Source of the DNA: Amoebophrya sp. A120
Lineage: Eukaryota > Protista > Dinoflagellata
Direction of reading: 5' to 3'
NCBI GenBank assembly: GCA_905178155.1
Contig: CAJINV010000017.1
Location: forward strand, 302,722 to 366,721
DNA length: 64,000 nucleotides
The notes beneath the pieces were generated by a model that was not told the origin of the DNA, did no database searches, and was given only the letters and a program-made list of their open reading frames with translations. The stretch's first letter is position 1. The number at the start of each line of letters is the position of its first letter. A program made the translations under genes and the position numbers. Positions 1 to 49,047 of this stretch are shown piece after piece.

Positions 1-143
1 GTGCAAAAGTATCGTATTCGTATAAATGCAAGTCTTGCATCACAAATTTCTTTCTCAAGGTAAATCAGCATTACAAATTTCATTTCTCATGCTGAGAAAA
101 TTTGTAATGCATTTATACGAGTACGATACTTTTGCAGTTCATA
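1..143. mobile_element. Introner-like TIR element, family A (left end cut by window edge)
   Basis: TIR TGCAAAAGTATCGTA.TCGTATAAAT / ATTTATACGAGTACGATACTTTTGCA, ending GTTCATA. Near reverse complement of the element at 56699-56842. Confidence 0.9.
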
Positions 144-3100
144 TGATTGACATCATTTTCGCGCCCTGCTCGCTCTCCGACGCGGCAACAGGGAGTTTGA
201 TTGTCGTGCCCCACGACTTGACGACTTTAAGAGAGGCGTTTGATGGCACAAAGGTGAAAAAGCTGACTTGTTTAATTCCCCAGGGGCCAGTCAATTCAGG
301 CGTCTACTTGCCTCGATTCGCGATTTCGAGACAGATCCTCGCGACAGTCGTTCCTGAGGAGTTTTACGAGACTTTCTTCACGATCAAGATGCCGTCAGAC
401 GTGAAAAACGTCGTGCCGAGCTACGCGCTGATTGGCGAGGGCTACGACAATCAGTACAAGATTTTGGAGGAGGACTACGAGGGCGAGGAAGTATCCAGTG
501 CAAAAGTATCGCACTCGTACTAAAAATTGCAGTCTGGCATGACAGATCCGCTTTGCTACTTGAACCTGCATGACAAATTTCATTTTTCTTTCTGGGAAAA
601 TTTGTCATGCGATTTATACTAAATACGATACTTTTGCAATGCATAGGAAGATTACGAAAACGACTTCGGCTACGCGGACCAGCTCGTCACTGCCTCCGCC
701 GTGCACGTCGATAACAACGCAAGAACTTTCTCGTCCTTATACGACGAATTATCCGCTAAGGAATCCCAAATCTCCAGCGGTCTCTGCGCGCTCATTCCCG
801 AGTCAGAAGCCATGTCCACCTCGATCAACAACGAGCAATTCCGGTGGGGAATGGTGTATGATAACGCGGTGTGCACGGGCCCCCGGCCGATCGACTTAAC
901 CAAAAACGTCTTCCGTTATTCCCCGTCGAAAGACCCATACCGCGATTGGGCGACGTCGAATCTGCGCGTCATCACGATCCGACTGTTCGGGGTGGACACG
1001 ATGACGCCGAAGAGGATCTTGGGTTACAACGCCGACTACACGGTGGAAATGAAGCAGAAAGACACGGATGTAATTTGGTACGACCAGGCGGGCGTCAGCA
1101 AATTGGTTTTCAACGGCAGTAATTTCACGGATGTTGCGACGTTGATCCCAAGTGGGGTGTTCGCCTGTCGCTTTGAAAACTCACTTTTGACAAACGCGAC
1201 CGCTTTGTCCGTTTCCCAAGCGGCTTGCGACATGCCGAAGACCGATTTCTTCCGCGCAAAGGGAAAAATCAAGGTGGATTTAGGGCTGAAGATCGACGAC
1301 GACGCGTTCTACCCAGCGAATGAAGAATCTTTCACGCTGGAAGTGTTGCAGTCGCCGAAAATAACCGCGACAAATCGGTTCATCGTCTACAACACCACGG
1401 CAGACCCGGTACAGCTTATCACAGACGATCAACCCACGATGGACCTGTATGGAAATGCGCACGTGAAGCAAAATCGGTTTTTAACATTGAACCCCTTGAA
1501 ATTGGGCTACAGCTTCATCCTGTACGGGCGGAACTACCCCGCGGCCGAAGATGTTTCTACTGTGCTATGTATCTTCAGGATCGCCGCTGCCGATCCCGTC
1601 AAGGAGTACATCCCGAGCGCGCAGCAACTGTACAAGACGACGGCGGTTTGCTATGCGCAGAAGGTTTGCTACTGTTTGACGCCGAGATTGCACGACAATG
1701 TGATGAAGACGACGACGAAATTGGAGCTGTTTGTGTCGCTCCGGTTTTTGTTTAATTACTACGAACTCACCAATTATCACGACACCAGCGAGTTCCCCGT
1801 GGAAGTGGAGGTATGGCAGACGAATGAGAAAAAAACCACATCTATCAAGTGCAAAAATGTCTGGGTCTGGAAGAATGCATGTTTGTCATGGTTGTCTAGC
1901 ATAACTCTTAAATCTGTCATGCGCGTTACCCAAGAGCTCCATTCTTCTGTGATGCAGAAACGCAGTCTGTCATGCAGAATAGGCAACACCTAGAATCTCA
2001 GAAACTTGTCATGCTGAGCCAGCATTTGTGGCCTCATCATGAGACGCCACCCAGCATCACAAGTTTCCAGACCCAGACACTTTTACATTTGATAACATCT
2101 GCCCCGATTATGTCCTCTATGCAGACGACGTTCACCAGCTCGATCCAGATCCCGTACAGATCCTTCAGGAAGAACAATCTGCAGGAATCCATAACTATGC
2201 ATTGCAAAAGTAACGTACTAGTATAAATTGCATATACAAATTTTGGCAAGAAGAAAAATGGAATTTGTAATGCTGTTTTACCTTAGGAGGAAGATTTGTC
2301 ATGCGTATTTGCAATTAGTACGTGTGCGATACTTTTGCACAGCATAAGAACAAAGTCGCAAGTCCGTCAACCGGTGATCGGCGGGGTGACGCGGAAGATG
2401 ACGACAACAACGCACGACTCGATGTTCGAATCCTACCCGGCGTCCGCGCCACTGAATCTGAGGAAACAGAGGCTCTACGTGAAAGCCGCCGCGCCGATCG
2501 TGGAGTTTCTCGGTTACGCCCCTTACACCTGTAATTTCGAAGACAAAAACTTCGGGTACAACACAAGGAACGTAATCAGGCGCAAGTTGGATCCGAACGC
2601 GACAGACTCGGAGGAAGTCGAGGAGCAGGAAAGAGACATCATCAGAGCGGTTGTTTCCGTCGGTATTGCGGTGGATGACACGAGCTTTTACTGCTTGATA
2701 CCTAGTGTGTCTGAGCCGAAATCAGTCTCGGTGCGCATCATGTCGCCGTTGGGGCGAACGGTGCACCGGATTGATAATTTCATCTACTACGAGCCGCTGC
2801 TGAATGGGGAATTTGTGTTGAACGAAAGGGATTTCGCTGGCGCGACGGAGGAGCAAAAGACGAACCCGGATGTCCCGCTACCGGCAAGAAGCTACAAATC
2901 CGCTTTGTTTATCAATTTCCGGGTGGAAACCCCGACCGTTGCGTACCGGTCACTCAATATGCAGTGCATGTTCGACTTCCGGCACGCGGTTTTCCCGGCT
3001 TTGATCGAATCGGATCGGATTACCTGTGACTGGGACCGCTACGGGATCGACCTCGCTGCGAAATTTGCGTACTTGGACAGACACGATTTGAAGAAGCAGC

Positions 3101-6100
3101 TGAATGTGACCACCCCGAACTTCTTGGTGAATGAAACGCGACTGTTTTCCAGAAGGTTGAGACTCTTGTACGACAACGTGTACGAATCCGAGCAGTTCTT
3201 GGATGTTCCGGTCGATCCAGAAGCGGAGCGGACGAAACTGTTTGGCCCGGAGTTGGAGAAGAAGGACTTGTCTTCCATTGTCGACCCGGTTACCGGGAAA
3301 ATCACGCTCGCGGACGAGATCGAGGCGGCCAAGCCGGTCATGCAAGTCAGCTACTTGGATGCGAACTCGCCCGGTCCGAGGCCGAGCGACCACCACAACT
3401 ACTGCGACTCGGAACTGTTACTCCTGGCCGCGGAGCCGAACAAGGGGCGGATTTTGTCCGGTTTGCAGCAAGTTACTTTGTACTTCGAGTCCGTCGCGGA
3501 TTGGACGCAAGACCCGTCGGACTGCATCATGCGCGGAGAGTATCGTACGAAAAAAGTGTTTCACTGTAAGGATTTTGCAAGTTTGGCATGACAAGTTCGT
3601 TACACATGACAGGGAAAACTTGCCATGCGAGGTTCCTAAGGGAAAACACAGCTAAAAATCGCCTGTCTTGCATGTGTAGCAAGACAAACACTTCTGAGAT
3701 GCAGTTTCTGCATTACAAGTTTACAGTGAAACAGTTTTTTATTGCGATAGAGAGCAGTCGCACCAGCCGGGCGGCGGGGAGATTCGGAGAAGGAAAATCG
3801 CGGGCTGCTTTTTCGACGAGTACTTCGCCCCGGCGGTGGAGTACGCGCGGGATTTCGTTTCGTGTGTCGCGCCGACGGTTTTGATGGCCCACCAAGCGGA
3901 TGTGTTTGTGGCATACGAGTATGAGTATCTGGAAACCGCGGAGGAGTACGAACAGTACATAAAATTCGTGCAGTACAGAATCGAAGAAGAAAAGCAGCTG
4001 GCGCTTTCCGGAAGTGAAAAACCTTTAACCAGGACGGAGAGAAATCGGTTGGCGCAACTGCCGAGCAGGACCAGCATCGTGAAGGGGACTTACGCGCTGG
4101 CCTTTTTCTTCTACGAGGCAGAGACGGTCGAGCAGGTGTATTTGTCGATGGAAAACAAGTTGGTTTTGCAGATGAAGCCGAACCCGTTTTTGCAGTCCGA
4201 CGATTTGTCTGTCCAACTAGGGGATTGGACGGGGGAGAACGTACGGTATTTAGACAACTCGACCTTCGAAGTTTCGGTTCCCGCGCTCGCAAGCTCCTAC
4301 GGGTCCGGGGAAATAAGCGAAGATGCGGATGAGTCTGAGAAGAGTAGTCTTTTTTCCTACAAGGTGCCGGAAGTTTTGGGGATGGACGGAAAGGGCGATC
4401 CGGATCTGCCCTTTTCTTTCTCGAGACAAACGAAACTCTCGGAAAGCCAGCATGGGCTGATGCGCAAGTTCAACTTAACGCTAGACTCGGACCACGTGCG
4501 GTTTCACGACATGCTGATGAACGTGGGGCTGAAGTTTTACTACGTGCCAGTGGATAACGTTGACAACACGAGATACTACGTGAAATTTGATCCTCCACCG
4601 ACGTCGACACTAGGGGGCGGCGGAAGCAGTGTTGGTGGAGGATTTTCTCTCGCTGGAACATCAAGCGATGGTGTAGTTTCTGAGCCGGTGGAAGTTTTGT
4701 TCGTGCGGCAGGCGAAAGAGCAAGAGGCAACCGAACCTGTTTCCAAGCCGCATTTTCTCGACAACGTCGAGCTAGAGTCGGGAACGACGGGCAAGAAGTT
4801 GAAGCTGCACAATTCCACGCTTTTTCAAATTGCCTACAACACGGATTCCAGCACTCTGAAAACTCCCGTTGACGTGATCGAGGTGGCGATTAAACATCCA
4901 GACACCGAGTCGTTCATCTGCGTGGACGAGTTGACAAGTCAGCTGATTCATCTAGAAAATTCCGAAGCCAGGTGCAAGTTCAGAATCGATTTCGTCTTCC
5001 CGACCGCGAAATCCATCGATTTCACCAGTCGCTATCTAGAATTCTTGCGGAACTTCGGGCAGCAGAACGCGGCAAAGGCACTGGAATTTCTCTACACGGA
5101 CGGGGACAAAGTGTTGACGCCTTTACCCGGTAGCTCAAGCAGCACGGATTTCCAGATTTCCGCGACGAAAAAGAAGTACAATGCGCTGCAGCTCCGGGCG
5201 AGCTACAATCCGGTGAACTTCGACGGAACGTACTTCCCTCTGCGGAGTTTCAGCAAGTACCCCTTTATCCGAGAGGCGAAATTCTCGATGGACGGCGGAA
5301 AAATGTTCTTCGCGCCAAACGCTTACGGCCTAGTCGGGAACAGCAACGCCGTATGCAGACTCGGGAATTACGGGCCTTTCCCGGTGGAAGCGGTTTCGGT
5401 CAACGCGACATCATCAACCGGCAGCTCTTCCAGTCGTGAACAAATCACGTACCGAAAGTGCGACATGGCGACGGCGGTGGTGTCTGGGATTCTTTCTGCC
5501 GGCGCGGAGCCGAATTTGGTGGAAGCATCCAGTATCTCCCGATCTGCGTTCTACGGGTCTCGCGCGGCGGGCTTTTACGGGACCACAGTGGATGAATTAC
5601 CCTTCGCCGTGGTGCAGGCTGGGATAAATGCGACGGAGTTTGGAAATTTACTCGACTTCGAGTCCATGGCGGTTTTTGATTCTCGGTTCACGAAATTGGG
5701 AGAATTTATCGTGGAGGAGACGGAGGAAGAGGAAATCGCGCGCAGACAGGCCGAACAGGCGGTGGAAGATGCGAAGACGAACCCGCTCTATTCCTCTACG
5801 TCGACAAGCTCCACGAGCACGACGACGACGACAACTTTACCCGAGGAAAAAAAGCAGTTCTACTCCGTGAACATTCCGTCCGAATCCTGGGGGTCTATTA
5901 CCATCGCAGAGATTGAGCCGAAGTTTGGAAGGCTCGAGGGCGGCACGCCTCTGACCATTCTCGCAAAGCTGCCGTTATTGAACGACAGGATCTCCCCACT
6001 AGCGTCGTTGACTTGCAACTTCGGCAATCTCTACACGACCCCAGTGGACGTGATCGCGCCTACGTTTCCCAACGCATATGCATTGCAAAAGTATCGTACT

Positions 6101-9100
6101 CGTATAAATTGCATTCATGCATGACAAATCTCTTTCTAAACCTGAAAAAGCATTACAAATTCCACTTCTGTTCTTGCCGGAATTTGTGATGCAATTTATA
6201 CTAGTACGATGCTTTTGCATTGCATAACGCAACGAGAATCACGATCAAGAACAACGCGAACGGGAAAACAACGTTTTTGTCGGTGCACCGGAACCCGCAC
6301 AACCTCGGGTCGTTCAATTCGATGGCATCTGTGAACGACTACCCGAGACTAGACCAGGCGTTCTACGACGTCGCGCTTTCCGACCAGGAGCAGGAGTGGG
6401 AGATTGTGACGAAGTCGAGGAATACGGTCGCAAGCCCGATCGACCACTACTATTACTTGTTTCACCCGGAAACGAAGTTGTTCTTACATGTAAAACCGGA
6501 GTTCCTCTACTGTTCGTCCGAGCACGTGTTTGACGGGTTCAAAAACGAAACCGAGCCAACAGTGGTGCAGAACTGCACGACGTACATGCGGGACAACACG
6601 ACTTTAACCGCGTCGGACTACCACTTCGCGATGATTGATCTAGACAAAAACTTCCGAGTTAATACAGAACACCAAACCGAGCCTGATTTCGACGAAACGG
6701 ACGCGTTGTTTGAGTTCCGAATCACGCAAGCCGCTAGTAAACTATTGGGGAACGGGGCGGAGTTCACGATGTTCCACGTGAAAACCAACACTTTCGCGGA
6801 GGCGGTGCACAATTTCTCGACGAACAGCTTTGAACTTTCCGACTACGACAACGATGTCTACAGTCAGCCGCCCTACAAGGCGAACGTCACTTTCGACGTC
6901 GCGGGGTCGGTGCGCGTGAAGCCCAAGAAGCTTGAAAAATCATCCCTACAAACCGGGGGTGTGCAGGATTTTTTCCAACTCAACAGCTTCCTCACTTTCC
7001 AGATGGACATCCGCGAAACCGCCTACCCCTGGTGGTCGGCGTTGCGGTGCAAATCCCCAGCGCACACCGAGCCGGGGGTCTTGCCGATCATCATCTCCAC
7101 CGGTATGGGGGAAGAAACGGACAACAAAAAGATCGCGGACATGATGCAGAAAAGCTTGGGCGCGGACCAAAGCTTCAGTCCCGGCGGCGAGGATGACGAT
7201 TCGCTTGGCGCGGGAATTGTGAATATGGGGAAAGGGGCGTTTGAATATTTGCCAAACTTCTACGTGAAGGACTACTCCCCGAAGCAGCTGTTCGATGTCG
7301 TGCACACCGACTACGAATTGATGCCGATTCGGTACGTCACATTCACGGTTGGCAATCTGGACCAGCCGGGAATGCGGAGCTTGGCAAACAGCTGGACGAG
7401 GTAAGTGAACGATTTGGTTTTTGTTTTTCTTTTCTTGTGGTAAAGTTTATTCACGCGGCCCAACGAATCAAGTAGAAAGAACAAGCGTGTGATAGCATGC
7501 TGGGTAATGTTACTCTGCATGGTATCACGCACTAGATATTGATGTGGTGCGGGTTACTGCCGTGACAGCATCGTGGATAGAGTTACGCAGCACGACACTA
7601 CAGCGATTTTTTTCTCAAACACACGATACCGTCGTGTGACAGATGATGGTGCATGGTGTTAAGGCATCTCTCTTGCAGCATCTCTTTGGCACCATTCGTT
7701 ATTCTTCCAAGTGTATGTCACAAAACAGGTACGAGCCCTGGTGCAACGTCAACACCCTGATCGCCCGGGGCGTCTGGATCGGGCGGGACAAAGTGCAGTG
7801 CCCGATCAAACGAACCTTACCGCTCCTGGGCCGCGCGCGGTTCTTCTCCGAGCCGGTGAAACGCGATCTGACCCCGGTGGTCAAGACCTACATGCAGGAC
7901 CCAGACCACCCCGCGAACTACACAGTTCTGAGACTTCTCCGCGGTCCGACGGTCAAACAGCCCGAACCCTTGTACCGGTTGCGGGACGGGGAGGTTGGGC
8001 CCAGCCGGGATTATTGGGACGACTTCTACGAGCACGAGTCTGAGAAAGCCAACCACGAGTATTACGTGGGCTTCAGTTTGAACGGACCCAACGGGGATTT
8101 TGTGTTCCCGGAAGCGGGGAATATTCGGGAGGAGCAGCTGAAAATAAAAGCCGGAACAGCAAGTGCATCAACTTCATCTGTGGACACAAATAACCCACTG
8201 GGCCTCTACCCGGATTCAGGCACCGGAGCACCCTACGACAGTGAGACCGCTAAACGAGAAGGGGAGGTTTTGTCAAACCCGAAAGAGATTTTGAACATTC
8301 CAGTGAAGAAGTTCTCCGTGCCCTTCGCCGGTACACCTCTGTCGCTCTCGCGTGACGGCGGGCAAATCACTTTGAATGGGTTGGATTGGAACGAGGACCT
8401 GGTTGATCTGTCGCAGCAGGGGGTTTTTCAACTTTTCCTCATCTTCGAATTCTCCATGGTCTCCAACAACTTGCAGAACGAAGAGCACCCTTGTTTCTAC
8501 CTGAACAGGTTGGAAGCAAAGTGCAACCGGCCGTTTATGTACGACGAGGCCTTGCTCCCGACAGTCTCCATCCCACTCACCATGCGGGCGGTTTTAGACG
8601 GGGCCTCGTACCAGTTTGCTTTACCGTTCAATGTCACCTTCGCGGACGTGAACTTGGTCACGAGCGTGTTCCCCAAGTACATCCCGATGGTGCGGGACTC
8701 CGCCGAGGCCTGGCAGTCCTCGTATCCGGTTTCCGACCTGAGTACGCAGCAAACGCAGCTGGTGAAGAGGTCCGCGGACTTCACCCTCTTCGGCGGGCCG
8801 TTCAACGCCTTGCTCCCCTACGTCTGCGTGTGGTTCGAGCCGGACGGGAAAGCGTTAGCCGTGACGAACGTGACGAGCTCCCAACCCGACAGGCTGCTCT
8901 GCAACACGCCAAATGCCTACGTCCCCGGGGACATGGAGGTGTCCGTCTTCGTATTCCCCGCGTTTGAGCTCTTGTCCATGACGACGCTAGAGAGCCCGGA
9001 CTTACGCCTGCCGGACATCTACGAGGATTTAGGCGGTCTGGCCGTGGGCTCCGGGTCCGTTGCGTTTTACTCCGCGCCGGTCGTGACAAGCGTCTACCCC

Positions 9101-12100
9101 GCGAGCTGCGGTCTCGGGAAGGATCTGCAGCTTACCGGGTTGTACTTCGACAGAGTCTATCAAATGTAAAAATGTCTGGGTCTGGAAGCTTCTGAAACTT
9201 GTCATGCACGTTGTGCATGAGCCATGATGTCTGTGATGCATACCCTAGCAAAACAGATTTTTTGAGGGCTTCTTGATGCGTATTCCGCATGACAAAACCT
9301 TCTCAGCGTAGCAAAAATTGCATTCCCTTTGGTACTCATGCAATACAGATTTTTTTGGAATCCACGTGCAGCATCACAAGTTGCAATCTTCCAGACCCAG
9401 ACATTTTTGCAATTCATAAAGTCCCTGATAAGACCAAGATCCACTGCACGTTCAGCGACATCGGGTCGCCGCGAGGAGTATCAAAATGAAAAATCCCCCC
9501 TCCCCATATTGAGACGGAAACTTCTGTTGCTGAATTTGTGTACACAAATCAGCCCTGTCTTGCAGTGAGGCACTACAGGCAAGGCCCCAGCCTGCGTATG
9601 GGTGTTTTGTTGTAGGCTCTTGGCATAAGAGAGGCCTGCCATGTAGGTGAAACAGCATTACAAATCGCCTCCATAAGGCGGCGGATTCTTTGGCTTTGCA
9701 TTCTTGCAAGACAGATGTGATTTGTGACCTCAAATCCGCAACGCATGCAAATTTTTGCAAACATACCTTTTCGATAAGGGGAGGGGGGATCTTTCCTCTC
9801 AATAAGGAGATGCGTACTTGCGGCAAACGCACACGCAGATCGCGACCGAGTTGATCGTCGAGACAATCATCCCGCCGTCGTTTGAGAACAAATTTTCCAG
9901 GCAGGAATCCTACGCGCGCTGCGCCTGCCCGGACCGGGATTTGCTGGGAACGGCCAGCCAAATCATGTTCCAGCTGATGGCGAACGGGGAGCAGTTTATC
10001 TCCAGTCCGCAGATCCTCGGTGTGGAACAGATGCCGTCTTTCTTGAAACTACCGAATTTCGTCGACATGGACATCCCGACCGCTGAGGCGTATCCACCGC
10101 AGTTACTCCAGTACGGGGTGAGCAGCGGCGCTTTGCTGCCCTTGTTTGTCCACCCGTCTTCGAGTTATTCCGGGCCAAGTGGGGAATATTTGAACACCGA
10201 CAAGGAAAAAACACTGTTTTGCCAAGTGGCGAACGTCGCCGGGAGGGTTTTGGCCGTCGACCAGAAATTCGCGACCCAGGCTGGGGAATTCTCCCCCCAG
10301 TCGCTGTTCGGCGGTGCGGCGGCCAGGCATTACTGCCACCTCCCGGTCTTCACGCTGCGGAACCAAACTTTGCCATCCGCCGAAATGTACGCTTCGTTCG
10401 ACGGGGTCACCTGGTTCTTCGTGAACAAGGTAACCGTGAACCCAGCGCCAGTTTTGAAAGAACTTAAAGCTCCTCCGGGCTTAACGGAGGGCGGGTTGTA
10501 CCGACTGGACGAAATGCAGTATGGCGATATCTTCGAAAAGGGCTACATGGAGATCGGCACGGTAATGGGGGAAAATTTCGTCCCGGGGTGCAATTGCTTG
10601 TTCTCCTCCGACTACGTAGCGGATGGTCCGGGGAACCAGATTGTTGATTTGATGGATCAGCAAAAGTACGCCGTGTCGGAGCACTCCACCGTGGTGGACT
10701 CAACGAAAATCATGTGCGCGTTTCCGCCGAAACTCTTCTTCGAGAAGTTCCTGGTGTCCGTCGCCTGTCCGCCGACGACGATCGCGCAAAACTCGCTGTG
10801 GTTTATTCCGCCGAACCGGCTACCGAAAATCCGGCAAATTTACCCGGACTCCCTCGGCGCCTATTTGCAAAACACGATCACCATCTACGGGCACAACTTC
10901 CACAGCTACATTGGGCGCGTGAAGGAGCACATGAAGAACAAATTTGATCAATTGATCCCCAGCAGGGATGACTACAACGCGATGAATTCCCCCTTAAGGG
11001 TTCGCTTTAGTGGCTACCCAATCGGCGGCGACGACAACGATTTCCCGGTGGAAATTGTTTCCGACACGATTTTGCGTGCGAAGATCCATTTCCGGTTCGA
11101 CCCCCCGCCAAGGTTCGTCAAAGCGGGGTTTACGAGGAGAGATTACAACAATCGGGTGCGGGTGACGTTGTTTCTGTCCGACGTGAACCAGGAGACAAAT
11201 TACGTGGAAATTGATGTTAGACGACCCAGTTCCGCGATTTTCGTGGCCGCGAACCCGCTAAGTCTCGCGCCGCAGGTATCGCAAGAAAAAACTGCTTCAC
11301 TGTAAACTTGTGATGCATAGAACGGAACGCAAATGCGTTTGTCTTGCTACACATGCAAGACATCGGATTTTTAGCTGTGTTTTCCAATAGAAAGCACGCA
11401 TACCAAGTTTTCTATTGTCATCTGTAACAAACTTGTGATGCAGATCTTGCAAAATCATCACAGTGAAACAGTTTTTTCGTGGGATAGCAGGGCACGCGGG
11501 ACTACAGTTTGGTCGTCGAGGGGCACAACTTCCACTATACGGATTTAGAGCGGCAACTGGACTTAACGCTAGTTCCCTATCCCTACGTGTGGTGCCGAAT
11601 TGGCGATTTGGTCACGGATGCCTACGTGAAAAACGACACGCGGGTCCAGTGCCGGGTCCCTGCGTCCTTCTCCCAGCAGACGTCAATCCAGATTATCAAC
11701 ATCAAGGAGGGAATTTCCACCCCATTGCTCCCGTTCGAGTACTACAGCGTCCCGAAGAAACTCACCTACAGCTTCAACGAGCTCCCCTACGCGCTGACGC
11801 CATACTCGTCTTTGGCGATTTTTGGCGAGCTGTTTCCGATTGGCAGCAGTGAATGTGAGCTGTACTTTGATTCCATGCCGACCCCGGCGTTGGTGCAGAC
11901 AGTGGAGCTGATGACGGTCACGATCCCTCGCTTCACGTCCGCTTTGCGAGTGACTCTCACCCTGAAATGCGGCGCCGCGCAGATGGGCCCGACGCAGAAC
12001 TTCTACTTCACGGAGAAGCCGGAGTTGTTAGCTGTGTACCCCACGAAATTCAACGTTGAGGGCTATGAGTGGGTCACGCTGCACGGTAGGAATTTCATCG

Positions 12101-15100
12101 ACACCGTGTACTTGACCTGCACCTTTGGCGGAAAGCACGTGGTTTCCGGTCCGGACAATGTCGCGTACCTGAATCCAACCACAGTGAAGTGCCGCACGCC
12201 GGAATTCCTCCCGTCTGATTCGAAAGTCACGATTCAAGTTTCCACGGACGGGGTAGTGTTCAGTAGTTTGTTGGAGAAGACCATGGATCCGGTTTTGAAG
12301 ATTTACAAGGACGCGATGATCCCGCTCACGGCCCGAATCCGCGTTCTCTCCATCGCACCGCGGCTGATCGCGCGCGCAGCGACGACGGTGTTGAAGATCC
12401 GCGGGAAGAATCTGGTCGCGGGGATGTACTGCTTTTTTGAGAATTCCATTACGAGCCCCGCGGTCGTGATCGACCAAAACAACGCGGAATGCACGTTGAC
12501 GGACGAAACAACGGAGTTCGCTTTGCAGTCGCAGGGCGGAACCGCGAAAGTGCAGCTGCAGCTGATTCTACCATCAGATACCCTCCGCTTCGCCTTCTTT
12601 CACGTGGCGGAACATTTATTGTCGGTCAAAGTCCGAGAGCGGCCGATGTTCTACTCGCTCACCCCGTTTTTCGGTTCGACGTATGGCGGCACAGAAGTGT
12701 CCATCAAGGGTCAGAACCTTCTCCCCGACGACGAGCAAGACGCGACAGTGAAATGCATCTTCTGGTTTGGCCGCTACGCATTGCAAAAGCATGACCTTCG
12801 CACACAGTAGAATTCGCATGATGAATTTTTCCACAAGGAGAATGAAAGGAAATTTGTCATGCCGGTTCAGGTATAAGCGCAGGGCAGCGGCAGATCTGTC
12901 ATGTCAGCCTGCAAATTGTACGAGTGCGATAGTACTTTTGCAAAAATCCATATCCTACCAGTGGAGGCGATTTCCGTGAACCAAACGGTGATTACTTGTG
13001 TGACCAACGCGGCGCTGAACCCGACCCAGTCCTGGTCGCAGGAGGTCCAGGTGCAGTACTTGAACAGATTCCTACGCGTCTACCCGTCCGAAGCGCAGCT
13101 AGATCCGCGACCGTACAACGTTTCCACTTTCACAGAGGGCTTCGAAGAACCGATGATGCTCTCGACCGGCTTGAAATTCAACTTCGAGCCGCCACCGGAG
13201 ATCAACACGATCGAGCCGTTAGTTGTTGCGCAGCACGACTACATCCTGGTCGCGGGGAAGAACTTCCTCCGCGCGGGCGTGAAGACGCACATGCGGTGTC
13301 GGTACCGGTTGAAGTTGGACAATCTGAACACGACGGCGGAGCAGGCGCGAGTGTTGCGGATGAATAATGAAGTGTCGGAAACAAAAGTGTTGGCGAACAT
13401 CATCAACCACGACTTGATCCGGTGTAAAACCGTTCTAGTCGGGAACATCACCGTCGACGTGACGATCTCGATCCAGGAGAACCCGTTGCTAGAGTGGTCT
13501 AACAGTAGGGAAATCAAAGTCTACGAGGCGCCGAAGGCTTTCCAGACATTAGACTTGGCGCTGGAAACGGTGAGAAAACAGAAGGAAGCGCAGTTGCAGT
13601 TAGAAGCGAATCAGGCGGCTGGCATAAGTTACAACGTGACGACGACAAGCACTACGACCACCGACCCGTTCCTGCCTCTGAACAACAACACAAACGAGAC
13701 TTTGGCGACTTTGGTGTATCACCAGTCCGTGGAAACGATAGCGGTTGCGATGGACCTGGAGAAATGCGAAGATAATGAATCAGGTGAATGTCTCCGACCG
13801 CCGCCCGGTGGCTTGTTTGCGCCACTTAGCTGCGCAGATTACGCGGCGAAGGGGGGATGCTTCTCTCTAGTCTTCGACGGGTGCTGTCAAAAAACTTGCG
13901 GGATGTGTCCGGATGTGTTGAGTAAGAACTCGCAGAATTTGGTCTGTTTGATTGTCGATCTAGAAACCGATAGAGTTGTCATCGTTCCGAGACGCTCCGA
14001 CAACCTCTTCGGAACCGACGCGCGGGTCACGACAAACATGACGCAGGAGTTAGTGCTCGCGAACTGCCTAACCGCACCCCTTCCTCCCTACAAGAAGTTT
14101 TTTGTCAAAGTGGCGCTGTTATCTCGGAATTATCAAAACATTTTCGAGCGGTCGATGTTCTACCAGGAAAACTTTCACCAGATCTACCAGCAGCGCACGA
14201 ACGACACGAAATTGCTTCAAAACGAGCACGACATCTTCGCGATTGCGGCCACCGGCGGGGCGCCGATGCTGACGTACACCGGGGGCGTCGCGCAATTGCT
14301 GGAGAGAACTTTGTTCCCGAAGTTCGGGCAAGCCGGGACGCCTCTGTTGATCAACGGGGTCGATTCGGCGTATGTCAAGTGGTGTCGGTTCGGTACGCCG
14401 GAACTCGCATCGACGACGCCCGGATCGAGTCCTCCGTGCCTGGAGTGGTGCGTGAACGACGCAGCTAGCACGGTCCCGTATTGTTGCTCGGAGACATTAT
14501 CCTCCGGTGGGAACGCTTTAACCGTAGCCGCGGTCGCCCGCGGGCCGAAGCAGGTGCAGTGTGTCGTTCCGCTTATGCCGCTGCGGTCGAAATTGCAGGG
14601 CAGAGTCCCGCAGATCGACGCGGCGTTCCCGATTTTCTTGGGGTACACAAAGCAAAACCTGTACGACAGCAGGCTGACATTTTACTACGAACCGGACTAC
14701 CAGGTGACGAGGATTACGCCGCAAAGAGGGACGAAAACCGGCGATGTGCCGGTGATGTTGGAAACAACAGCAATCTGGCTTGAAGGCTTCCCTCGACGGG
14801 CCGACTGCTTCTGCAGATTTTCCTCCCCACCCGGACAACCTCTAGTCCACGACTTCGAGCGGCCCGCAACCTGCGACTTCGCGCTCCGCGTCATCAACTG
14901 CACGACGCCGACGGTCCCGGCCCCGACGATTCTGAAGGTGCAGGTGGCGTTGGCGGGGACGTTAGGCGGTTATCACCAGTGGTCAGTGGAGCCCTATGTC
15001 TACTTTGAGTTCTACAACGAGGAAGAGCTTAGCTTCGTCTCCATCTACCCACCACTGGGGTCCTTGCAGGGGAACAACACGGCGGACATCTACGCCACGG

Positions 15101-18100
15101 GGAACTACCCGATCTTGTTCAAGAACTTCTACAAACAAGTGCTCGAACCGTACAAATTGGCGAACAAGGACCCGCTGGCGATTTACGAGACGCAGGAGGA
15201 ATCGGATTTCCCCACCCCGGTGACGTACTGCAGATGGAACAACGAGTACATCGTGATTGCGGAGTTGGTTTCCAGCACACAGTTGATTTGCAACGTGCCG
15301 AGCAGGTTCATGTTCTGTCAGAACAATCTCCCCACCAAGAACGAGTCGCTCATTCTGTCGAAAGACCCCCAGTTCGCGATTCCGGAAGACCCGTGTTACA
15401 ACGGGACGTTGTTCGATTTGGAAATCTCCTTCGCCGGCAATCCGCCGAATTTCCTCCCGATCAACAACTTGCAGTTTATCCAGCACGATCTAGTTTCGTA
15501 CAAACAGGAATTCCAGTTGCGGATCGATCCATTGTATGGGTTCGGTCAGGTGCAGTTGAAAGTCACCGGGTCGAATCTGAAGTCCCTTGCGCCGGAGCTG
15601 CCGAACTGCGTCTGGAACTACGGCACGTACATGACAAGATTGACCGTGTTCAATTCCAGTTACGGCGAGTGCGACGTGCCGTTATTGAAGGACATCATCC
15701 CGTCGCAAGCGGAGTACGACGCAATCGAGCTGCCGCACGACATCAACGTCGACATCACACTGGACGGGGGAGAAACGAGGTCTTACTTCTCGGTGATTTA
15801 CCAGTTCATCGCGCACTTCCAGATTCTCGCGCTCTCCCCGAACCGGGGGATTTGGTCGGGTGGAACGCCGTTAGAGGTTCTCGGGGATTTCTTCATCAAG
15901 TCCCCCCAGCTCTTCTGTCGCTTTGGCAACGTCGAGGTCCCTATCAAATGCAAAAATGTCTGGGTCTGGAAGAATGCGAGATTTGTCATGCTGATCTGGC
16001 ATGGCCCTTAAATCTGTATTGCGTGGCCACAAACAGCCTCTCTCGCCTGTCATGCAATAACGCAGTTTCTCATGCGGAATACGCAGCACAGAAGCACGAA
16101 GCAACTTGTCATGCTTGGCGGCGCATTACACTGCATTTGTTATTGACTGACTTGCATCACAAGTTTCGAGACCCAGACATTTTTGCATTTGATAGTCCCG
16201 GCGGTGTACGTGAGTAGACTGCTCTTGACCTGCGTTGCCCCGGCCTTACCCCGGCCGACCACCGTGGACGGGCAAACGGCGTACCCCTTTTCCTACTCCG
16301 TCGATGCGCAGCGGTTTTTGCCCGCGCTGGACGAAAACGGCCAGCAGATCTTCTGGTACGCGATGGAAGAGCCGGTTTTGGACTTGATTAAGCCGGACAT
16401 CGGGCCCTACACGGGTGATACGAATGTCACGATTAGAGGAAAGTTTTTCCAAGACGTGTCCTACCTGTCCTGCAGCTTCGGGGTGTTCATCACACCGGCG
16501 TTTTACGTGAACGCGACGGCGGTGCAGTGCGTTGTGCCGCCGTGTAAGGACGCGTTTGGGACTTCGATCTCTATGACGGACAACGGCTTTTTCCAGGCCT
16601 GTTTCGGAACCGTTGCAGTGAAATTGACCATGAATCAAGAGGAGTTCTACGGAAATCTCACCTTCGAGTACACGAACCGGCAACGGATTTTACAGGTGTA
16701 TCCCTGGTCGACTTCCTTCGAGCCGATCGACTTGTTCGTTTTGATCAACGGAACGAATTTCGCCGAGGAGGGCATGTACTGCCGGTGGTCGACGCCGGAC
16801 GGGTCGCATTTGGACCCGGTGAAGGCGGTGGAAGTGCAAAAAGAGTCGATGCGGTGCCGGGTGCCGGGGTTGCCGCCAAAGTACCAGATCGACACATCGA
16901 TCGTGCAAGCGGGGTCCGCCGGCGCGATTCACGACACCGTGATTGGGTACTTGGAGATCTCGCCCAACCCCGACCAGGACTACACGCGGGACCGACTGCC
17001 CTGGACCTGGTACCGACCGGCCATCGTGAAGAAGGTGATGCCGGAGACGGTGTACCACGGGAAGCCCGTGCAGGGGGCTTTTGTGATTACCGGAAGACAT
17101 TTTAGGCGGTTGGACGCGGAACGGGAGCTGCAGTGCCAGTGGTTTGCGGACGCAACAAACCCGGCGAACTACGAGTTGGTGCAGGCACACTACCAATCGC
17201 CGACGGAGGTCCGGTGTCAACCGACGCAGGCGGTGTATTCTTCCACCGGGTTGGACATTTCGCAACTGAATGTTCCGACGAGGATCGAGGTCGGCATGTC
17301 GCAACTAACCTACTCCGTTTCGCAACACACGGTGATGGCTGAGCCATTTGTCGATTTAGTGCACCACTACGAGCCGAGTCCGATCAACCCGCTGATTCAG
17401 ATCCAGTTCCCGGCGTTAGATTTCGACTACGACAACTTGAACCTCGGGGGAGCACCGAGGTGTATCCACCTCGGGGGGTGCACGCTCGGGTTGCGCGGAC
17501 ACAATCTCTGGAACCCGATGCTGAACCATCTGAATAAGCTGTACGTTGTCGTCGGGGACACAATTGTAGAGGCCAGGCACTGGTTCGCCTACCCGTACGG
17601 CTCCAGACGGAAGTACGCGACCTTCAAAGCGCCGCCGGTACCCCACAGGGCCGATTTGGCGAGAAACGCCGCGGTGTTTGTCACGAGAAACTTGCAAGAT
17701 TTGTCCACCGCACGGTTCGATTACAGGATAACGTACGTGAAATTAGATGCGGGGAAGTACTACCGGCCGGAATTGCAAAACGGAACCGCGATTCCCTGTC
17801 CCCGTGGTCACTACTGCGAGGGGGCGCTGCAGACGAACTTCTCCGAGTGGCTGGTGCCGCCGACCGAGCCGCTGCCCTGTGCGTCCGGAACGTTTCAGAA
17901 CTTCACCGGGCGGGGCGACTGCAAGATCTGCGAGGAGGGGACGACCTGTCCGGAAACCGGGATGGGCGAGCCGATCCAGTGCGCCGTCGGCTACATCTGT
18001 TGGACGCGGGGCGGCTGGGACGCCGCGATGCCACTGTGTCCGAGCGGAATTCTGTGTCTCCGTCCGCCTTACGGGAAGTCTTCGCTCTACATCGCGACGA

Positions 18101-21100
18101 CCAGCCGGATCCGCCGGCTGCTCATCGCTTCAGAAACGGGAGATCCGAAGTACTTGGAGCAATTACTAGATCTTGTGCAAGACGACGAGATGAACGACTT
18201 CCTCTCTTCCACCCAGATCACCAACGCGGAGAGGAAGGTTTTGAAGGAAAACATGTTCAAACCCAGGCTGTTGGAAAAGATCCAGCGCTTCAACGAATCG
18301 CTGCAGGCGGAGCGGCGTGCGATCTTCGCGTCGGGGAACGACAAGCAATCCATCTTCGGCGTCGAGGGGATCGATACAGACGCGGCGCAAGCGAAGGAAA
18401 ACTTCCTCTCCCGAAAAGCGCAGGCGAAGCGGTTGCTGCGGCAGTTCGTTTTGCCCGATGGACAAAGGTACCACAAATCCGTCGGGGCCGAGCCGCCAAT
18501 CCGGAAGAAGAACATCATCACCTCGCATGCGAAAAACCAACTCTACCACGAGTACACCACGACCAGCCGGTCGATCTTCGACGAAACTGCGAAGGGGAAA
18601 GTTCCTCTGGACGAAGAGGAGGAGGGCGAAGAGAACACGCTGCACTTTTACAGGATGATACGCATTGCAAAACTGTCGTACGTAGTAGAAATTGCATCGC
18701 AAATTTTTCCAGAAGAAAGCACAGAGTTTGATGTCATGCGGATTCAGATTAGCAAGCAGGTTTGTCATGCAGAACTGCAAGTAAAACTAAAAACTGCCAC
18801 TACGACATTTTCGCCGAGGATAATTGATGAACCATTACTACTACGACCCGGACGAGTTGACCTACATCATCGACTCACACCAAGCAATTTGGGAGGCGAT
18901 GGACATGCCGGAGCGCCGACGTGCGCTGCTGACCAACGTGATCGGCAGCTCGATCGAGGAGATCGCGAAGGGCGTGGAGGCGGAGAAGAAGAAGGTGGAG
19001 TCCGTCGGCGTGCTCCCCTCGAACAAGCACTTCGGACCTTTGGGCCGGGGCGATTTGGATCTGCACGAGGACGGGCTGCAGCGAATCCGGGAGATTCTCT
19101 ACCGGAAGAAAGCAGACAGACGGGAGCTGCAGGAACGCGATGCGCCGACGATCACCGGCCTACCGATTCAGGTCGTCCCGTGTCCGGCGGGTGTGTACTG
19201 TCCGCCCGGGTCGATGGCGCAGCAAAATGCGGATGGGTCGTTTCAGGTGGTGTCCGCGAGCCAGTGCTCGATCCCGGGGGTGGTGTGCACGCCGGGAACG
19301 AGCGTACCCGTTGCGGTGGACACCACCGTGCCCGCGGGCATGTACGTCGACCCGCAGTCCGGGTTACTGGTCTCCTGTCCTCCCGGATACAGCTGCCCGG
19401 GCGGGTCGCAGACCAGCGGACTTCCCTCCGCTTGCCCACCGGGGCAGTTTCTGGACTCCGCGGGGGGCGGTCAATGCCGGACCTGCACCGCGGGTACCGC
19501 GTGCTCCGGCTTCGGCGGGGCGCTTCCGGAGCCCTGTCCCGCGGGGAAGGTGTGCGTCTTCCCGGGTAGGTCCGGCTCGGTGTTCAACTGCCCGGCCGGG
19601 AGTTACTGCCTGCCCGGGACCTTCACGATGAACTCCAACGCGGTCGTGCCGGCGGGCTTTAACGCGCCGGTGATTTGCCCGGTAGGGACGTATTGTACCC
19701 AGGGGACAGGGAAAGTCGAAGTGGACGACCTCGACCCCATGGCGCCGAAGAACTGCGTCGAGGGGACGTTTTGCGGCGTGAACGTGACCAGTCCCGGCGG
19801 GACGGACAACTGCCCCCTCGGGTGGTACTGCGAGCGTGGCGTTCCGTTCCCGAAACCCTCGCCCCCCGGACATTACGTCTCCGACTACGGCCAGGAGTAC
19901 CCGGCGAAGTGCCCACCGGGTCTTTACGCGGACGTCTGGGCGTCGATCCAGTGCAAGCCCTGTCCCGCCGGTTTTGAGTGCGGACAGGATGGAACGGAGG
20001 ATCCGAAACCCTGTCCGGAGGGAACGTTCCGGGACGCCAGGGGGGATCCTTTGGAAAACGTGTTCTGCAACCCCTGTCCGCAGGGCACGTGGTCGCCGAA
20101 CACGCAAGTGAAGCGCGAGGAGGACTGTTTGGATTGCGACGAGCGGTACGTGTGCTCCATCGAGGGGATGGTCCGGTTCGCGACCATTGAGCAGCCCTGT
20201 CCGCAGGGCGCCCCGCCGACGGAGATTTGCTACCAGAACTCGCTCGGGACCGACTGCCCGCCGGGTTTCGCCTGCGCCCGAGCCACCACCCAGTACACCG
20301 CCGGCGACTTCCCCTGCGACCCGGGGTACTACTGCGCGCCGCGGACGGTTCCGCGAGAGATGCGCAACTTGCTGTGTCCCGCGCAGTACTTCTGCAAGGA
20401 AGCAACGCGGTCCTCGGCGAAGAACCAGTTTCCGTGCCCGGCTGGGTTTTTCTGCCCGGCAGGGACGGCGGCGGAGTCGATTCGTCCCGCGGGGTCGAAC
20501 CGGCTAGAAACGAAATACTACAATGTCCGGTCCTGCGACAGCTTCATGCTCACGATCAGCACCTACGCGTGCCAGTTCTACACCTTCTCCGGCCCCGCGA
20601 CGGAAGCGCCGCGGACGGAGGCGGGGGAGTTGATTTTCCCCATGGCGATCCCGAAGGCGAGACGCGTTTTGTCGATTTTAGGGCTGGATTCCCGCCCGAC
20701 GCAAGAGATGGACGATGTCACCGCGAAATCGATTTTAGCCGAGTACATCTTCGACGTAGAGACGGATCGGCAAAAGGAGTACGAGAAGCACACTGGCCCG
20801 GCGGCGCGCAGGTCCCTTCACGAGGCGAAGAACCCGTTTACAAAGATGGAGGAGCTGACGAAGGCGGAGCAGAAATTGTTCGAGACCAAGGCGAAAGTTT
20901 CGCAGGAAGCCGCGCACATTTTGCTGCAGTTCTCGCCCAAAACCGATTTGCCACTGCTATCTTACAACACCGCGAAGCAGTTGCAAGACATGCACCACGC
21001 GGTCACCGACCCGTACAACATGCCGAAGACTTTCGAGATGCTCGGGAATCTGCGCGACCCGTATTTGTACCCGGAATCGGCGTACGAGTTCATGGAGAAC

Positions 21101-24100
21101 ATCCTGTCCGAGCAGTTCGCGTACACCGAGGTGGAAGACGAGGACGACGAGGACGATATGAACGAGCCGCTCTTCTTCAGCGAGCCGAAGGTCGCCTCCG
21201 TGCAGGTCGGGGGCACCGCCGGGTTTGTTTCCAACGTTTATCAGCCACAAGCGCTGCCGGGGGCCGGCGTTGCACCTTCTAGGTTCTCGAGTAAGACGAT
21301 GTATTTGAATGACATTTACGGAAACGACGACGTCCGGTACGATCAGGAAACGACATTTCTCCCTGGGCATTTCTCGGTGGAGGAGGCGTTGTACGCGGTG
21401 ACGAGGGAATTGATGATGAATACGACGTGCAAGATTATGTTCTTCAACTTCATGCTGCGCACGATCGAGGATTTGGCCGCGAAATCCGCACAGTTCGCGG
21501 TCGAGGAGAAGGGGCCGGAATTCTACCAGGTCGATTGGCACGACGTGGGTGAGGCGAACGAATCCCTGCCGCCCGACCTCCGGGGGTCCAGCTGTGCGAC
21601 GAGGACGCTCGTGAAGACTTTCAAGAACCGGATTATGAAGATTGTGGCGCGGGAGCGGCAGAACGGCATGAAGGATCTGGTGAAAGAATCAAGGATGCGC
21701 TTGTTTCCACATTTGAAGGAATTAGAAGACAGGATTGGCAAGGTTGTGGCGGAAGGAGGGAACAAAGGCACAGCAGCTGGAGCAGCAGCTGGCTCTCCCA
21801 GCGAAAAACAAGAAGCAGCACCGCAGGAAGAGAAGCGCACTTCGTTTATCAACGTGGACACTTTGCGCTCGACAACGCGGAGGTTGCGCGCGTGGATGTT
21901 CGGAGGCGATTCCCCAGATGTAGAGGAGGAGTCGGCTGGCGCGAATGCAGCCGCAACCCCCACTGCTGTAGCAACGTCAACATCTACTACCAAGGCGTCT
22001 ACTGCGCAAGAAGACCAGCTGAAAATCCCCCGGTCCTGGGGACCGGCGATCGACGCGCGGGGCTTGGCAGAGGAGATTTTGGTGCGACGGGAATGGAGTT
22101 TGGAGCAACATGCGCTCTCGCCTACGAGCATTTTCCGGGTGGTGGCGCCGGAAGCCTGGCGCATGGCGACGGGGGTGGATCTGTACGACCAGTACCGAAG
22201 CATGCGGAAAAGGCGCGAGTTGCTCCGGCTTCCGGGTCCCGAAGGAGAACAAACAAGCTCTTCAATCCAGCCTGTCATCCCCGTCCTCGACGAGAGTTTT
22301 GACGACCCACTATCCGAAACCTCCCTGCGCCGCCGCGCCATCGAGATTCTCGCGCTCGACGCGTCTTCTCTACCGGACAACAGTCGGGAAGTCGCGACGT
22401 TGGTCGAATCCCTGCGCTACAACAGCATGCGGAACATCCAGGAGAACCGGCTGCTGGAGGAGAAGTCCGAGGAGGAAAAGAGAAGAAAGCTGCAGACCCT
22501 CGGGGTCGCGAATTCCAAAAACGACACGATCTCCTTTCGCGGGGAATCCATCCTGCTCGACAGCAACCAGGTGCTCACGGTCACGCAGTACGAGATCTCC
22601 GAGGTGCCCTACTTCGCGATTCCGAAGGTGGACCGGGATACGAAGGCGCTCTGTCGCTTCTGCGACCCGGCGAAGGAGGAGTTACTCCCTGGCGCTTTTG
22701 TCTACGACAACGTCAACTGCCCGGTTTGCGACTACCACTACGAGTACCGCTCGCTGAAGTGCCCGAAGGGAACGGAGTCTCTGTTCCGCTCGTCCCAGCC
22801 AGACGACTGCAAGCAGACGGGGACGGTTATTGCCGCGATGAACGCGTACGTTTGTTACCCGCCGCGCATCTGTTGGGAGACCAACTACCGTCGCGAGATG
22901 GAGAACAAGCCGCGGCCCGAGGGCGAGGCGCTATACATCCCGAGCACCGAGGAGTTCTGCGGCCCTCGGCTCCCCGTCTCCGCTTTGTGCGGCATGAACT
23001 ACCCGCAATTCCTCACCGGGGGCATGCAGCCCCTGGAGGCGGTGAAGGCGAACCCGATGATCAAGAAGTCCTTCGTGTGGGGAGACCCGCTGCCGAATAG
23101 TAACAAGGTGGTGACGTTTTTGGGTTACGACCCGGACATCGAGTGTGTCGAGTTCCCCAACGACTGTACGTGGCCGATCCAGAAGGTGTCCATGCAGCCC
23201 ATGGACATGATCGTGCTGCAGATGAACTTCACGAAGGTGCACCAGGATATCCGGTACAACGCGCAGGGCGGTGGACATTACCTGATCTACATCATGACCA
23301 GCTCCTTCGAAAATCTGCTCTTGTCCGAGGGCTCGACTGCAAGAAATAGGCTATTGGCAGGTCACGCCCTGCCCCCGTACTTCAAACGCGAGCGAAATGA
23401 TAAGTTGCACCACTACTTCGAGATCAAGGTCTTCGCCCTGTACGCGTTAGATATCCGCGTCGAGATCCATTTATTGCACGGCATCCACTTACCGCGACTC
23501 GCTTCGTTCAACGAGACGATAGATTTGAAACTGTACTCCCCCTTCCGGACCTGGGCGGGCACGCGGAAGTTCTTCATTGCGTTGCTGGACAAGGATTTAC
23601 TGAACAACGGGGAGTACGAACTGCCCTACAACATGCCGCCCGACCAAGCGAACGTCGCGAAAACCGGGGAGAAACAGATCCTGATCGACTTGGCCCGGTA
23701 CGAGTCCCCGGATTTCAACAACGAGCCGCAGAACGTGCTAAACGATGGTGAAGAGGACGCTTTGTTCTCCCTGCAGACCCAAAGTAACATCTTCTGGAAC
23801 GTGGAGCGGATTCAGACGGTGGCGATGAGCTGGATCCCGTTCTTTTCGAACTGTGAGGACTATGACAGCCACATCGTGTTCTGGGACTTGCTCGAACAGC
23901 CGGAGGGGAGGTTGGACAAGAAGCGCGGGCGCTGCGTATCCTGAGTAAAAACGTACCCACCCCAGAGTCGAGATGGGGAATTTGCAACACAAACCTAGGA
24001 GTTTTAGGAGTCACGCGTGACAAGTTTCAGTCCGTAAGGTAGTGCAAGTTAGCAAGGAAAGCCGCATCACAAATCCACCCTCTGATCCTGTTTACAGCAT

Positions 24101-47036: not shown

Positions 47037-48294
47037 AAAAACGATCACGTGCCTCTTGCAGCCAAAATGGATAAGAAATATCGAGACCCTGGACAAAAAA
47101 TGAATAAATGCAGATCGGTCAGGTGACGTAATTGCTACTAGACGTAGGCATAAGAAATATCAAAATAAGCAGGATCCTGAAGAAACTGAAGCGTAAAAAA
47201 TGTTTCAGTGGAAGGAGTTCTAGTTCTCGTCAGATGAATGAAGACGGAAATCGGTCAAGAGAGCAGCACAGAAATAGATCCGCGAAGTACCTCTATTGCT
47301 CCTGGAGGTTCCTCGGATCATTCTGAAAGGCTAGAGTCAAGATCGGTCGAAAAATCACGATCAGACAGAAACAAGATCCGCGTAATTAGGGCTCCTAAGA
47401 GGATGATCCTGCAAGAAATGCGAAGCCCTTTTTTTAGGAACAAATTGGCCTAGCAAGGAAAAAGGCTCCTAAACGCCGACCAAATGAAAACAAAACGGCA
47501 ACTAACGGGGCAGAAAAGCACGAAAGGGCGGCCCAAGAGCGCCCCGGCCTTTTCAGGTTGTGCCCCCTCTACCCTGACGCGCGCGCCCTCGTTCCGTGTG
47601 CCAATTGGCGGCCTTCGGTGGCACCAGCGGGAACAGCGCGAATTTCTATGCGCGGCTGTGCGCGCATGCCTTCTGGGCTGTCCGGCCACCGGCGTGCTGC
47701 TTAGCGACTATCGCGAGGACTATTTTGCGACAAGCACCCTCAAAGCAGACGCGCCGCTTTTTGACAGACGCGCAGGCTCCATACCGGTGCCGAGGGGAAG
47801 TCGTGCGAATGTCGGACCAAGCATTGCGGCCCTCTGTGTGGGGTAAAGCTAGTAGAGGGCCAAGCGAGGACTCCTCCGCCCTTGTGTGTCTGCCCCAAGG
47901 TCGCGAGATGTTGAGTCAGGTCGGAAGAGGGGCGGGGGAATGAACCGACCTGAAGGCCACAGAAAATGCGAAGGGAAGGGCGAAAAAAGAACAGCAACAG
48001 GCGCCACGGGAAGGCCTCGACGGCCCGTCGGGAAGCCGTCGGCCCGTCCTCAGACACGGTGGGACTCTCGATTTTTTCCGGTTGGGAGGGGCCCCCAACC
48101 GGAGAAAATGGAGCGCCCCACCATGTCTGAGGACAAACCGGCGGCTTCCTGGCGGGCCGCGAGGCCTTCCCGGCCGGTGCGCCTGCACGTAGCTGTATGG
48201 CCTGCCACATAGCGGCCCCTTCCCCTTGTCCCTTTCCTTGAGCCTTTCCTTCGGATTTTGGTAGATTTTCGGCAAATTTTTGGGAGCTTTCAAA

Positions 48295-48945: not shown

Positions 48946-49047
48946 GTTTTGCTTGTCTGAGCGTGTTCATTTTTTTGCGCCTTTTCTTCCCGAATTCGAG
49001 TGCCTTTTTTTGCGCCACATTCTGCTTTTTTGAACAACAGAAAATAC

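Follow-up and report, generated by a model that had tools for sequence, protein, structure and literature searches.

How can an insertion within a coding exon be taken out of the transcript whichever way round it has landed? This question is raised by a 64,000-nt stretch of the dinoflagellate Amoebophrya sp. A120 (contig CAJINV010000017.1, positions 302,722 to 366,721; hereafter the window, whose own numbering is used below), which holds 29 elements in total: 27 complete ones, a copy at 1-143 that is truncated by the edge of the window, and the decayed G1, which RNA alone revealed. These are members of the already described introners of Amoebophrya A120. An earlier note on this DNA had proposed that their removal is independent of orientation and, for that very reason, cannot depend on a polar set of donor, branchpoint and acceptor. 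Our analysis bears out the former statement and departs from the latter, as removal in either orientation likely reflects mirror-image ends that give the same start signal and a hairpin both ways.

Two copies of family C, C1 at 3541-3749 and C2 at 11277-11486, are reverse complements of each other, with a BLAST identity of 82.4% over 210 nt (E 6e-54) and 175 identical positions out of 211 in a global alignment against the reverse complement. With 35 nt cut off each end, by which the inverted repeats are removed, the interiors score 160 in reverse complement and 29 in the forward direction, 200 shuffles giving at most 16; the interiors align only in reverse, and the orientation is therefore fixed by the interior. 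Both copies have TAT...ATA ends, imperfect inverted repeats of about 30 nt and exact 5-nt direct repeats, which read GAGAG for C1 (3536-3540 and 3750-3754) and GCAGG for C2; the introns predicted for them are 3540-3753, from the register of G1 discussed below, and 11276-11490, respectively. Family A is likewise split by sequence comparison in the way the note had described, the copies at 1-143, 45194 and 52755 being co-oriented and those at 44953 and 56699 opposite to them. The families are repeated in the genome, the depth of the sequencing run X3 on the elements reaching thousands.

The reading frames of the host genes show what has to be removed. The longest of these genes, on the + strand, starts before the window, was modelled from 149 to 26553, encodes IPT/TIG domains in its exon 11494-12774, and is extended by RNA contigs to about 34,250. 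When 15 elements, each with one copy of its 5-nt repeat, and a canonical GT-AG intron predicted from the frame at 7401-7728 (+) are taken out of the modelled part, 7,558 codons without a stop are left, with C1 and C2 in one + strand frame. Retaining any single element introduces 2 to 286 stops, and the frame is lost in 15 of 15 cases if 0, 3, 4 or 6 nt rather than 5 are taken out along with the element, the lengths covering both wrong frames. Besides C1 and C2, with orientation given as class 1 or class 2, the 15 comprise A1 (class 1, 492-645), B1 (class 1, 1843-2094), A2 (class 2, 2196-2346), A3 (class 1, 6077-6226) and B2 (class 2, 9158-9418), placed by comparison and frame; D1 (9479-9804), B3 (class 1, 15942-16194), E1 (23937-24215), B4 (class 1, 24269-24529) and D2 (25008-25332), placed by frame; and the class 2 copies A4 (12775-12952), A5 (18659-18822) and A6 (26005-26159). 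An RNA contig ends at 15936, at the repeat of B3. A4 and A5 are decayed: the repeat copies of A4 are alike at 2 of 5 positions, and its junction may remove 183 nt or, with GC-AG ends and the frame likewise kept, 189 nt; at A5 a piece of RNA contig ends at 18655, which fits removal of the element plus 5 nt with the first two bases of the upstream repeat retained.

Removal of the element plus 5 nt restores three other frames as well, namely a gene for an SNF2-family helicase (40211-45453, +; 1,315 codons including the stop), one for oligopeptidase B (55342-58142, +; 884 codons) that contains A10 (class 2, 56699-56842), and a DUF285 frame on the + strand around A9 (class 1, 52755-52903; placed by frame). 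At the A10 junction, the four oligopeptidase homologues inspected, of 120 returned, are all contiguous across it. Frame restoration, which the earlier note had claimed for all the copies it named, thus holds for each of them other than the edge-cut A0 at 1-143, whose left end and left repeat fall outside the window. At the protein level, the 96%-identical oligopeptidase B of a close relative is one product of 770 aa running through the A10 site, which fits an empty site. The DUF285 frame (a bacterial surface-repeat type) spans 52363-53130 and is broken by A9, with B9 (51425-51731) and possible decayed elements upstream.

Removal at the RNA level was assessed against ten listed sequencing runs, RNA being probed over 1-20000 (at 90% likeness) and over 25600-45500, where 15 of 16 joints were displayed. 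Three runs, X5, X6 and X7, come from two samples of one study, are labelled 'RNA?' and consist of contigs, not reads; they behave like RNA, in that four listed GT-AG introns are skipped and a satellite-bearing intron is uncovered. These contigs skip 11 of the 11 elements within 25600-45500. In all three runs the joints correspond exactly to the element plus 5 nt for nine of them: A6 (160 nt skipped), B5 (class 1, 27140-27424; 290), B6 (class 1, 29874-30130; 262), D3 (30186-30509; 329) and, inside the SNF2 gene, E2 (41559-41837; 284), the class 2 copies B7 (43042-43303; 267) and B8 (44095-44357; 268), and the opposite pair A7 (class 2, 44953-45103; 156) and A8 (class 1, 45194-45337; 149). The other two, the D-like G1 (26548-26814) and F1 (26840-27081), are removed together around a tiny exon, as established by record length. 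This exon of about 20 nt (26819-26838) compares with 50-85 nt for the other exons between elements.

Opposite copies are therefore removed alike: A7 and A8 are both skipped in one SNF2 contig per run, and B5 and B6 are opposite in orientation to B7 and B8, all four being skipped exactly. For C1 and C2 themselves the evidence of removal is the reading frame, RNA cover there being 0-2x; within the 1-20000 probe the true joints were crowded out by other copies of the elements. The raw RNA runs X8, X9 and X10 left the exons uncovered, their 118, 4 and 0 matching reads being element ends from other loci, which has no bearing on expression, and the DNA-like run X3 keeps A4 and A5 in place over both borders. 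As separate observations, the X8 reads, from another strain or relative, show family B ends at 9158-9408 joined mostly to a single foreign flank, and thus represent a copy elsewhere that is unspliced or not an intron; and a joint in X5 and X7 skips 274 nt with GT..CT ends at 38623-38898, at the 3' end of an element-free gene, its short side measuring just 30 nt.

To count orientations in a larger sample, a metagenome scan by the family B end motif was used, which returned 130 loci, the 80 listed being contigs of one assembly. An element finder gave 245 candidates, of which 220 remained once duplicates and those with fewer than 4 of 5 repeat matches had been discarded. After removal of the element plus 5 nt, 74 of the 220 had both flanks coding in a single frame, five other lengths yielding 1-2, and the remaining 146 were dropped as unclassifiable. 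With 26 copies from the window (B9, for which no host gene was established, being omitted from the counts), these 74 form a set of 100 elements, each read in the direction of the transcript. Their two orientations to the host gene are found in ratios of 25:25 for family B, 9:8 for A (plus one weakly assigned), 7:4 for E, 3:1 for C and 4:0 for D (plus one weak), the 2 F and 10 unassigned elements not being scored. Orientation is even wherever the numbers permit a test, D being too small to judge. Such a count per family had been suggested in the earlier note, and together with the RNA joints of opposite copies it upholds the claim that removal is independent of orientation.

Across the 100 elements, TAT is found at 95 of the 5' arms and ATA at 99 of the 3' arms, A occupies positions 11-14 in 86-97 of them, and in transcript orientation the 5' and 3' arms differ at none of 22 positions. 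Of the 245 candidates, which come from related loci, 195 have an exact 5-nt direct repeat, as do most copies in the window. Viral contigs gave 0 matches to two end patterns.

Where, then, are the cuts made? Conventional splice sites are rarely on offer, GT-AG or GC-AG being possible in any register in only 6 of the 100 elements and G[TCA]-AG in 12, and the target repeat resembles ordinary coding sequence, with no target bias and no exon-start preference. The recruitment of a GT or an AG from the target repeat was considered and rejected, given that canonical ends are rarely possible and the target is unbiased. Where the two repeat copies differ, the RNA shows which copy was kept, and the register can be read. 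The 5' cut offsets allowed on this logic are 1-5 for B5, 2-6 for A5, 3-6 for A6 with its mismatched repeats, and only 4 for G1. In the latter case the record lengths fix a removal of 272 nt, and X5, X6 and X7 all report two mismatches, a number compatible only with offset 4 and the intron 26547-26818 (one mismatch would mean offset 5, and three offset 3). From this decisive junction, the three compatible ones and a published table, we infer cuts 1 nt upstream of TAT and 4 nt downstream of ATA, that is, an intron of the form N-TAT...ATA-NNNN. Since G1 has no direct repeat left and is nevertheless spliced, the repeats are dispensable as sequence.

The table in question (Table S4 of Farhat et al., 2021; PMC7789003) lists nine non-canonical motifs for A120, all of which begin N-T (GT-AC, CT-AG, AT-AG, GT-CG, GT-AA, CT-AC, AT-AT, AT-AC and TT-AG), and nine for strain A25, all of which begin TT, the A25 repeats starting with TTA. 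T at position +2 therefore follows for both strains from the listed motifs, and A at +3 from the repeat motifs. With cuts in the 1/4 register the intron would therefore start N-U-A, like the canonical GUA; the five canonical donors of the window read GTAA, GTAC, GTAC, GTAG and GTAT (GTA in 5 of 5). At this register the first and last bases are coupled no differently from coding sequence (p 0.20). The integrity of the terminal TA was followed in a set collected by a search for the repeat core without a terminal-TA requirement, together with the copies from the TA-based finder, in which 95 of 244 elements were coding-flanked. Among these 95, the 5' TA is intact in every copy and the 3' TA is broken in 6 (p 0.029). 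An excess of TAC at the 5' arms (6/123 vs 1/123 position-3 changes) was not significant (p 0.12).

Given the insertion anatomy, the even orientation, the exact removal of the element plus 5 nt, the absence of a usable GT-AG and the free target sequence, our preferred explanation, for which we see the case for and against as evenly balanced, is that exonic, non-autonomous introners of the DNA-transposon type are removed by a relaxed spliceosome, which would read N-U-A and make a sequence-free 3' cut set by its distance from the paired ends. With inverted ends, the RNA would begin N-U-A-U...AAAA and finish UUUU...AUA-NNNN in either orientation; such signals would be polar on the RNA and mirror-symmetric on the DNA, so that orientation would be immaterial. 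In ordinary spliceosomes G at +1 and the 3' AG pair with each other, and here the two may have been dropped together. The U at +2 and the A at +3, which are common to canonical donors, would be read by U6 without U1, and the 3' cut could be measured either from the end stem or from a branch A lying in the 3' repeat; for such a branch the candidates are the A in ATA, which precedes the cut by 7 nt, and the A's that immediately precede the U-run. The spliceosome of Amoebophrya has been described as almost complete, with U1 not detected (PMC7789003).

It is at this point that the exclusion of polar signals in the earlier note gives way. A polar set carried in terminal inverted repeats is orientation-proof, because the same sequence stands at each RNA end either way; spliceosomal introners working in either orientation have been published for Polarella and Aureococcus (10.1101/2020.10.14.339549); and polarity is visible in the present elements as the asymmetric 1/4 register and as the contrast between 0 of 95 broken TA at the 5' end and 6 of 95 at the 3' end. 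The note had also called for a symmetric signal, either a stem that brings the two 5-nt repeats together or two equivalent protein-bound ends. The stem can indeed form both ways: 28 of the 28 window elements folded have their two arms paired at minimum energy on either strand (12-30 pairs). The direct repeats, for their part, are not needed as sequence, as G1 demonstrates. Also in favour of the note, GT/GC-AG ends are seldom possible, and conventional branchpoint motifs are enriched on neither strand of the 100 elements.

A broader statement, which we offer tentatively and would place a little below an even chance, is that any insertion is silent at any target and in either orientation, with a fixed 1/4 register measured from the paired end and no terminal dinucleotide. 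It would involve either a spliceosome with a second step free of 3' sequence or a second, non-spliceosomal machine converging on the geometry known from Euglena.

Several results weigh against a relaxed spliceosome guided by paired ends. A test for selection on an RNA stem gave no support, G-U pairs numbering 87 against 118 A-C, which is slightly the reverse of the expected direction (p 0.036, the copies not being independent); repeat positions 4-7 pair in only 50, 61, 79 and 36 of the 100 elements, no better than re-paired arms. The last 60 nt are not enriched in YTRAY or CTRAC (37 and 2 of 100, vs 47 and 10 when shuffled). Near-perfect sites of a U-run followed by CAG occur in the 3' arm of 22 of the 100 elements, the spliced A8 and B8 included, and are ignored; an ordinary spliceosome led by U2AF would not bypass such decoys. 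The register itself relies on one junction, read from a mismatch count rather than from printed letters, and the published motif table may have been shaped by the choice of the aligner among equivalent registers. Finally, the comparison of the 5' and 3' TA (p 0.029) is post hoc and was made on copies checked by frame only, in the assembly of a relative.

Some of these points would suit a nuclease and ligase of a Euglena-like type, which would cut at fixed spacers of 1 nt and 4 nt from the end stem, join the exons and perhaps release a circle. The 3' side has no terminal dinucleotide and the first base is free, the stem can form in both orientations, and the decayed G1, with only about 13 complementary terminal bases left, is still removed exactly. 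Also to be counted against the spliceosome is that introns of Euglena follow a code, 5'-N3CDG...CH'G N5-6, which likewise combines a paired motif with a short 5' and a long 3' spacer, the overhang difference being 2-3 there and 3 here (PMC12501133). U1 was not found in Amoebophrya (PMC7789003). Nevertheless, we regard this machine as unlikely, if still a serious competitor, given that T at +2 and A at +3 match canonical donors in two strains with unrelated elements, that the 3' TA tolerates changes which break the pair (4 of 6 variants do so; 2 keep G-U), and that neither the G-U balance nor the pairing at positions 4-7 points to a maintained stem. The lack of selection for wobble pairs would also be accommodated if proteins bound to the repeat core, or to a subterminal motif TTGT[CAG]ATGC, marked and joined the ends on the nascent RNA or the DNA template, RNA pairing being incidental. 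In family A, the arms show systematic mismatches at positions 4-7, where the paired fraction is 0.29 vs 0.49 at random. The subterminal motif is present in 218 copies (113 sense, 105 antisense) in 94 of the 100 elements and in all families, and outside elements only once in 57,455 nt of the window, at 51052; this distribution suggests, from sequence, one mobilising protein for all families. Subterminal repeats of DNA transposons can serve as transposase binding sites, however, and a site needed for mobility alone would explain the motif equally well. G1 is spliced while keeping little besides its terminal bases, and we consider bridging by proteins rather improbable.

An explanation that dispenses with splicing would invoke template switching by reverse transcriptase over the hairpin between the direct repeats, or excision of DNA. 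A hairpin with a short direct repeat is a known signature of template-switch artefacts, X5-X7 are contigs labelled 'RNA?', and the region 25600-45500 was compared with RNA runs only. This explanation is very hard to reconcile with the other results and we give it hardly any weight: the proteins require removal (7,558 codons in the long gene; continuity of SNF2 and oligopeptidase B), the junction at which G1 is removed contains no repeat, four GT-AG introns are missing from these very contigs, which also do not extend over the satellite intron, as expected of RNA, and the DNA-like X3 holds A4 and A5 in place.

The canonical introns of the window offer a comparison of their own. The pairing of their two ends is no better than in shuffles in 5 of 5 cases. 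In all five (7401-7728, 27671-29669, 30685-31912, 32231-32382 and 44438-44611) the first 40 nt are T-rich (35-55% T) and the last 20 nt mostly A-rich (30-50% A, 10-30% T), and they have neither a pyrimidine tract nor a clear branch motif. This order of T followed by A is the reverse of the A-run/U-run polarity of the elements.

With respect to known systems, the introners of A120 have repeats that start with TAT, followed by about 7 variable bases and a run of at least 3 A, and direct repeats of 3-5 nt at their borders, according to the parts of Farhat et al. (2021; PMC7789003) available to us. The elements of the window share with them the terminal inverted repeats, the direct repeats, the repeated families and the removal from RNA with non-canonical ends, and no structural difference was found. 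Their repeat motif fits A120 and not A25, the best named homologue of the oligopeptidase B being that of Amoebophrya sp. A25, at 57%. The same source leaves the border position (legend of Fig. 3) and the removal mechanism open, and in the parts consulted, figures aside, no count of orientation relative to the host gene was seen. In the accessible literature, figures and subscription journals being outside our reach, we found neither an orientation count for Amoebophrya nor a 1/4 register. Opposite-orientation matches were permitted in the search of Gozashti (2022), and no orientation analysis of A120 introners was seen in the text passages and 12 of 14 supplements of Gozashti (2025), nor anything on orientation in the parts seen of a tunicate paper (PMC13326754).

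Elsewhere, transposons with inverted ends and target duplication create introns either way in Polarella glacialis and Aureococcus anophagefferens, as stated in the consulted parts of a preprint (Roy et al., 10.1101/2020.10.14.339549). Inverted ends, target duplication and the creation of introns in either orientation are features that these algal elements and ours have in common. Huff and colleagues (2016) are cited in the same preprint. The algal introns, however, are described as having GT/GC/GA-AG ends, with one or both splice sites provided by the target repeat, which is not the case here; they need particular targets and the described classes are biased in orientation, whereas ordinary coding sequence serves as target here and families A and B are unbiased. 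The nonconventional introns of euglenids, for which their authors favour a non-spliceosomal machine in the sections seen (Nomura et al., 2025; PMC12501133), are similar to the present ones in their inverted ends, repeat-like junctions, lack of GT-AG and paired motif at asymmetric spacers, as far as these are described (PMC12501133; PMC11282704). They differ in using CAG/CTG, spacers of 3 and 5-6 and exons that start with a purine, where the present elements have TAT/ATA, probable spacers of 1 and 4 and no exon-start preference; the signature N3CDG...CH'G N5-6 with a purine is absent here, the ends reading N-TAT...ATA-N4. The release of circular introns is reported for euglenids in the same two sources (PMC12501133; PMC11282704). 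In Fritillaria borealis, introns derived from miniature inverted-repeat transposable elements have inverted ends, target repeats and non-canonical borders, as here, and are removed, according to the portion consulted, by an altered U2 spliceosome (PMC11282704), which is a precedent for the model we prefer. Their preferred AG-AC/AG-AT ends and exonic context set them apart, as both terminal bases are free in our elements.

Two further repeat structures lie in the window. A tandem array at 27744-29527, with a unit of about 368 nt made of two related halves and present in nearly five copies, is located inside a GT-AG intron of 1,999 nt, and at 48013-49450 long inverted units are clustered with short repeated ones (TGACACGCA-type and others), all of them unrelated to the introner families.

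The elements themselves were known, as were introners inserted in either orientation in other algae; what is added here is the even orientation, the freedom from target constraint and a register proposed for the cuts. These findings bear on the way in which tens of thousands of introns lacking GT-AG are removed in Amoebophrya, apparently with no U1, and make the question of mechanism specific, namely which bases are key, where a branch site would be, and whether a lariat or a circle is released. If the proposed reading is true, every exonic insertion would be neutralised, which would explain the free spread of these transposons.

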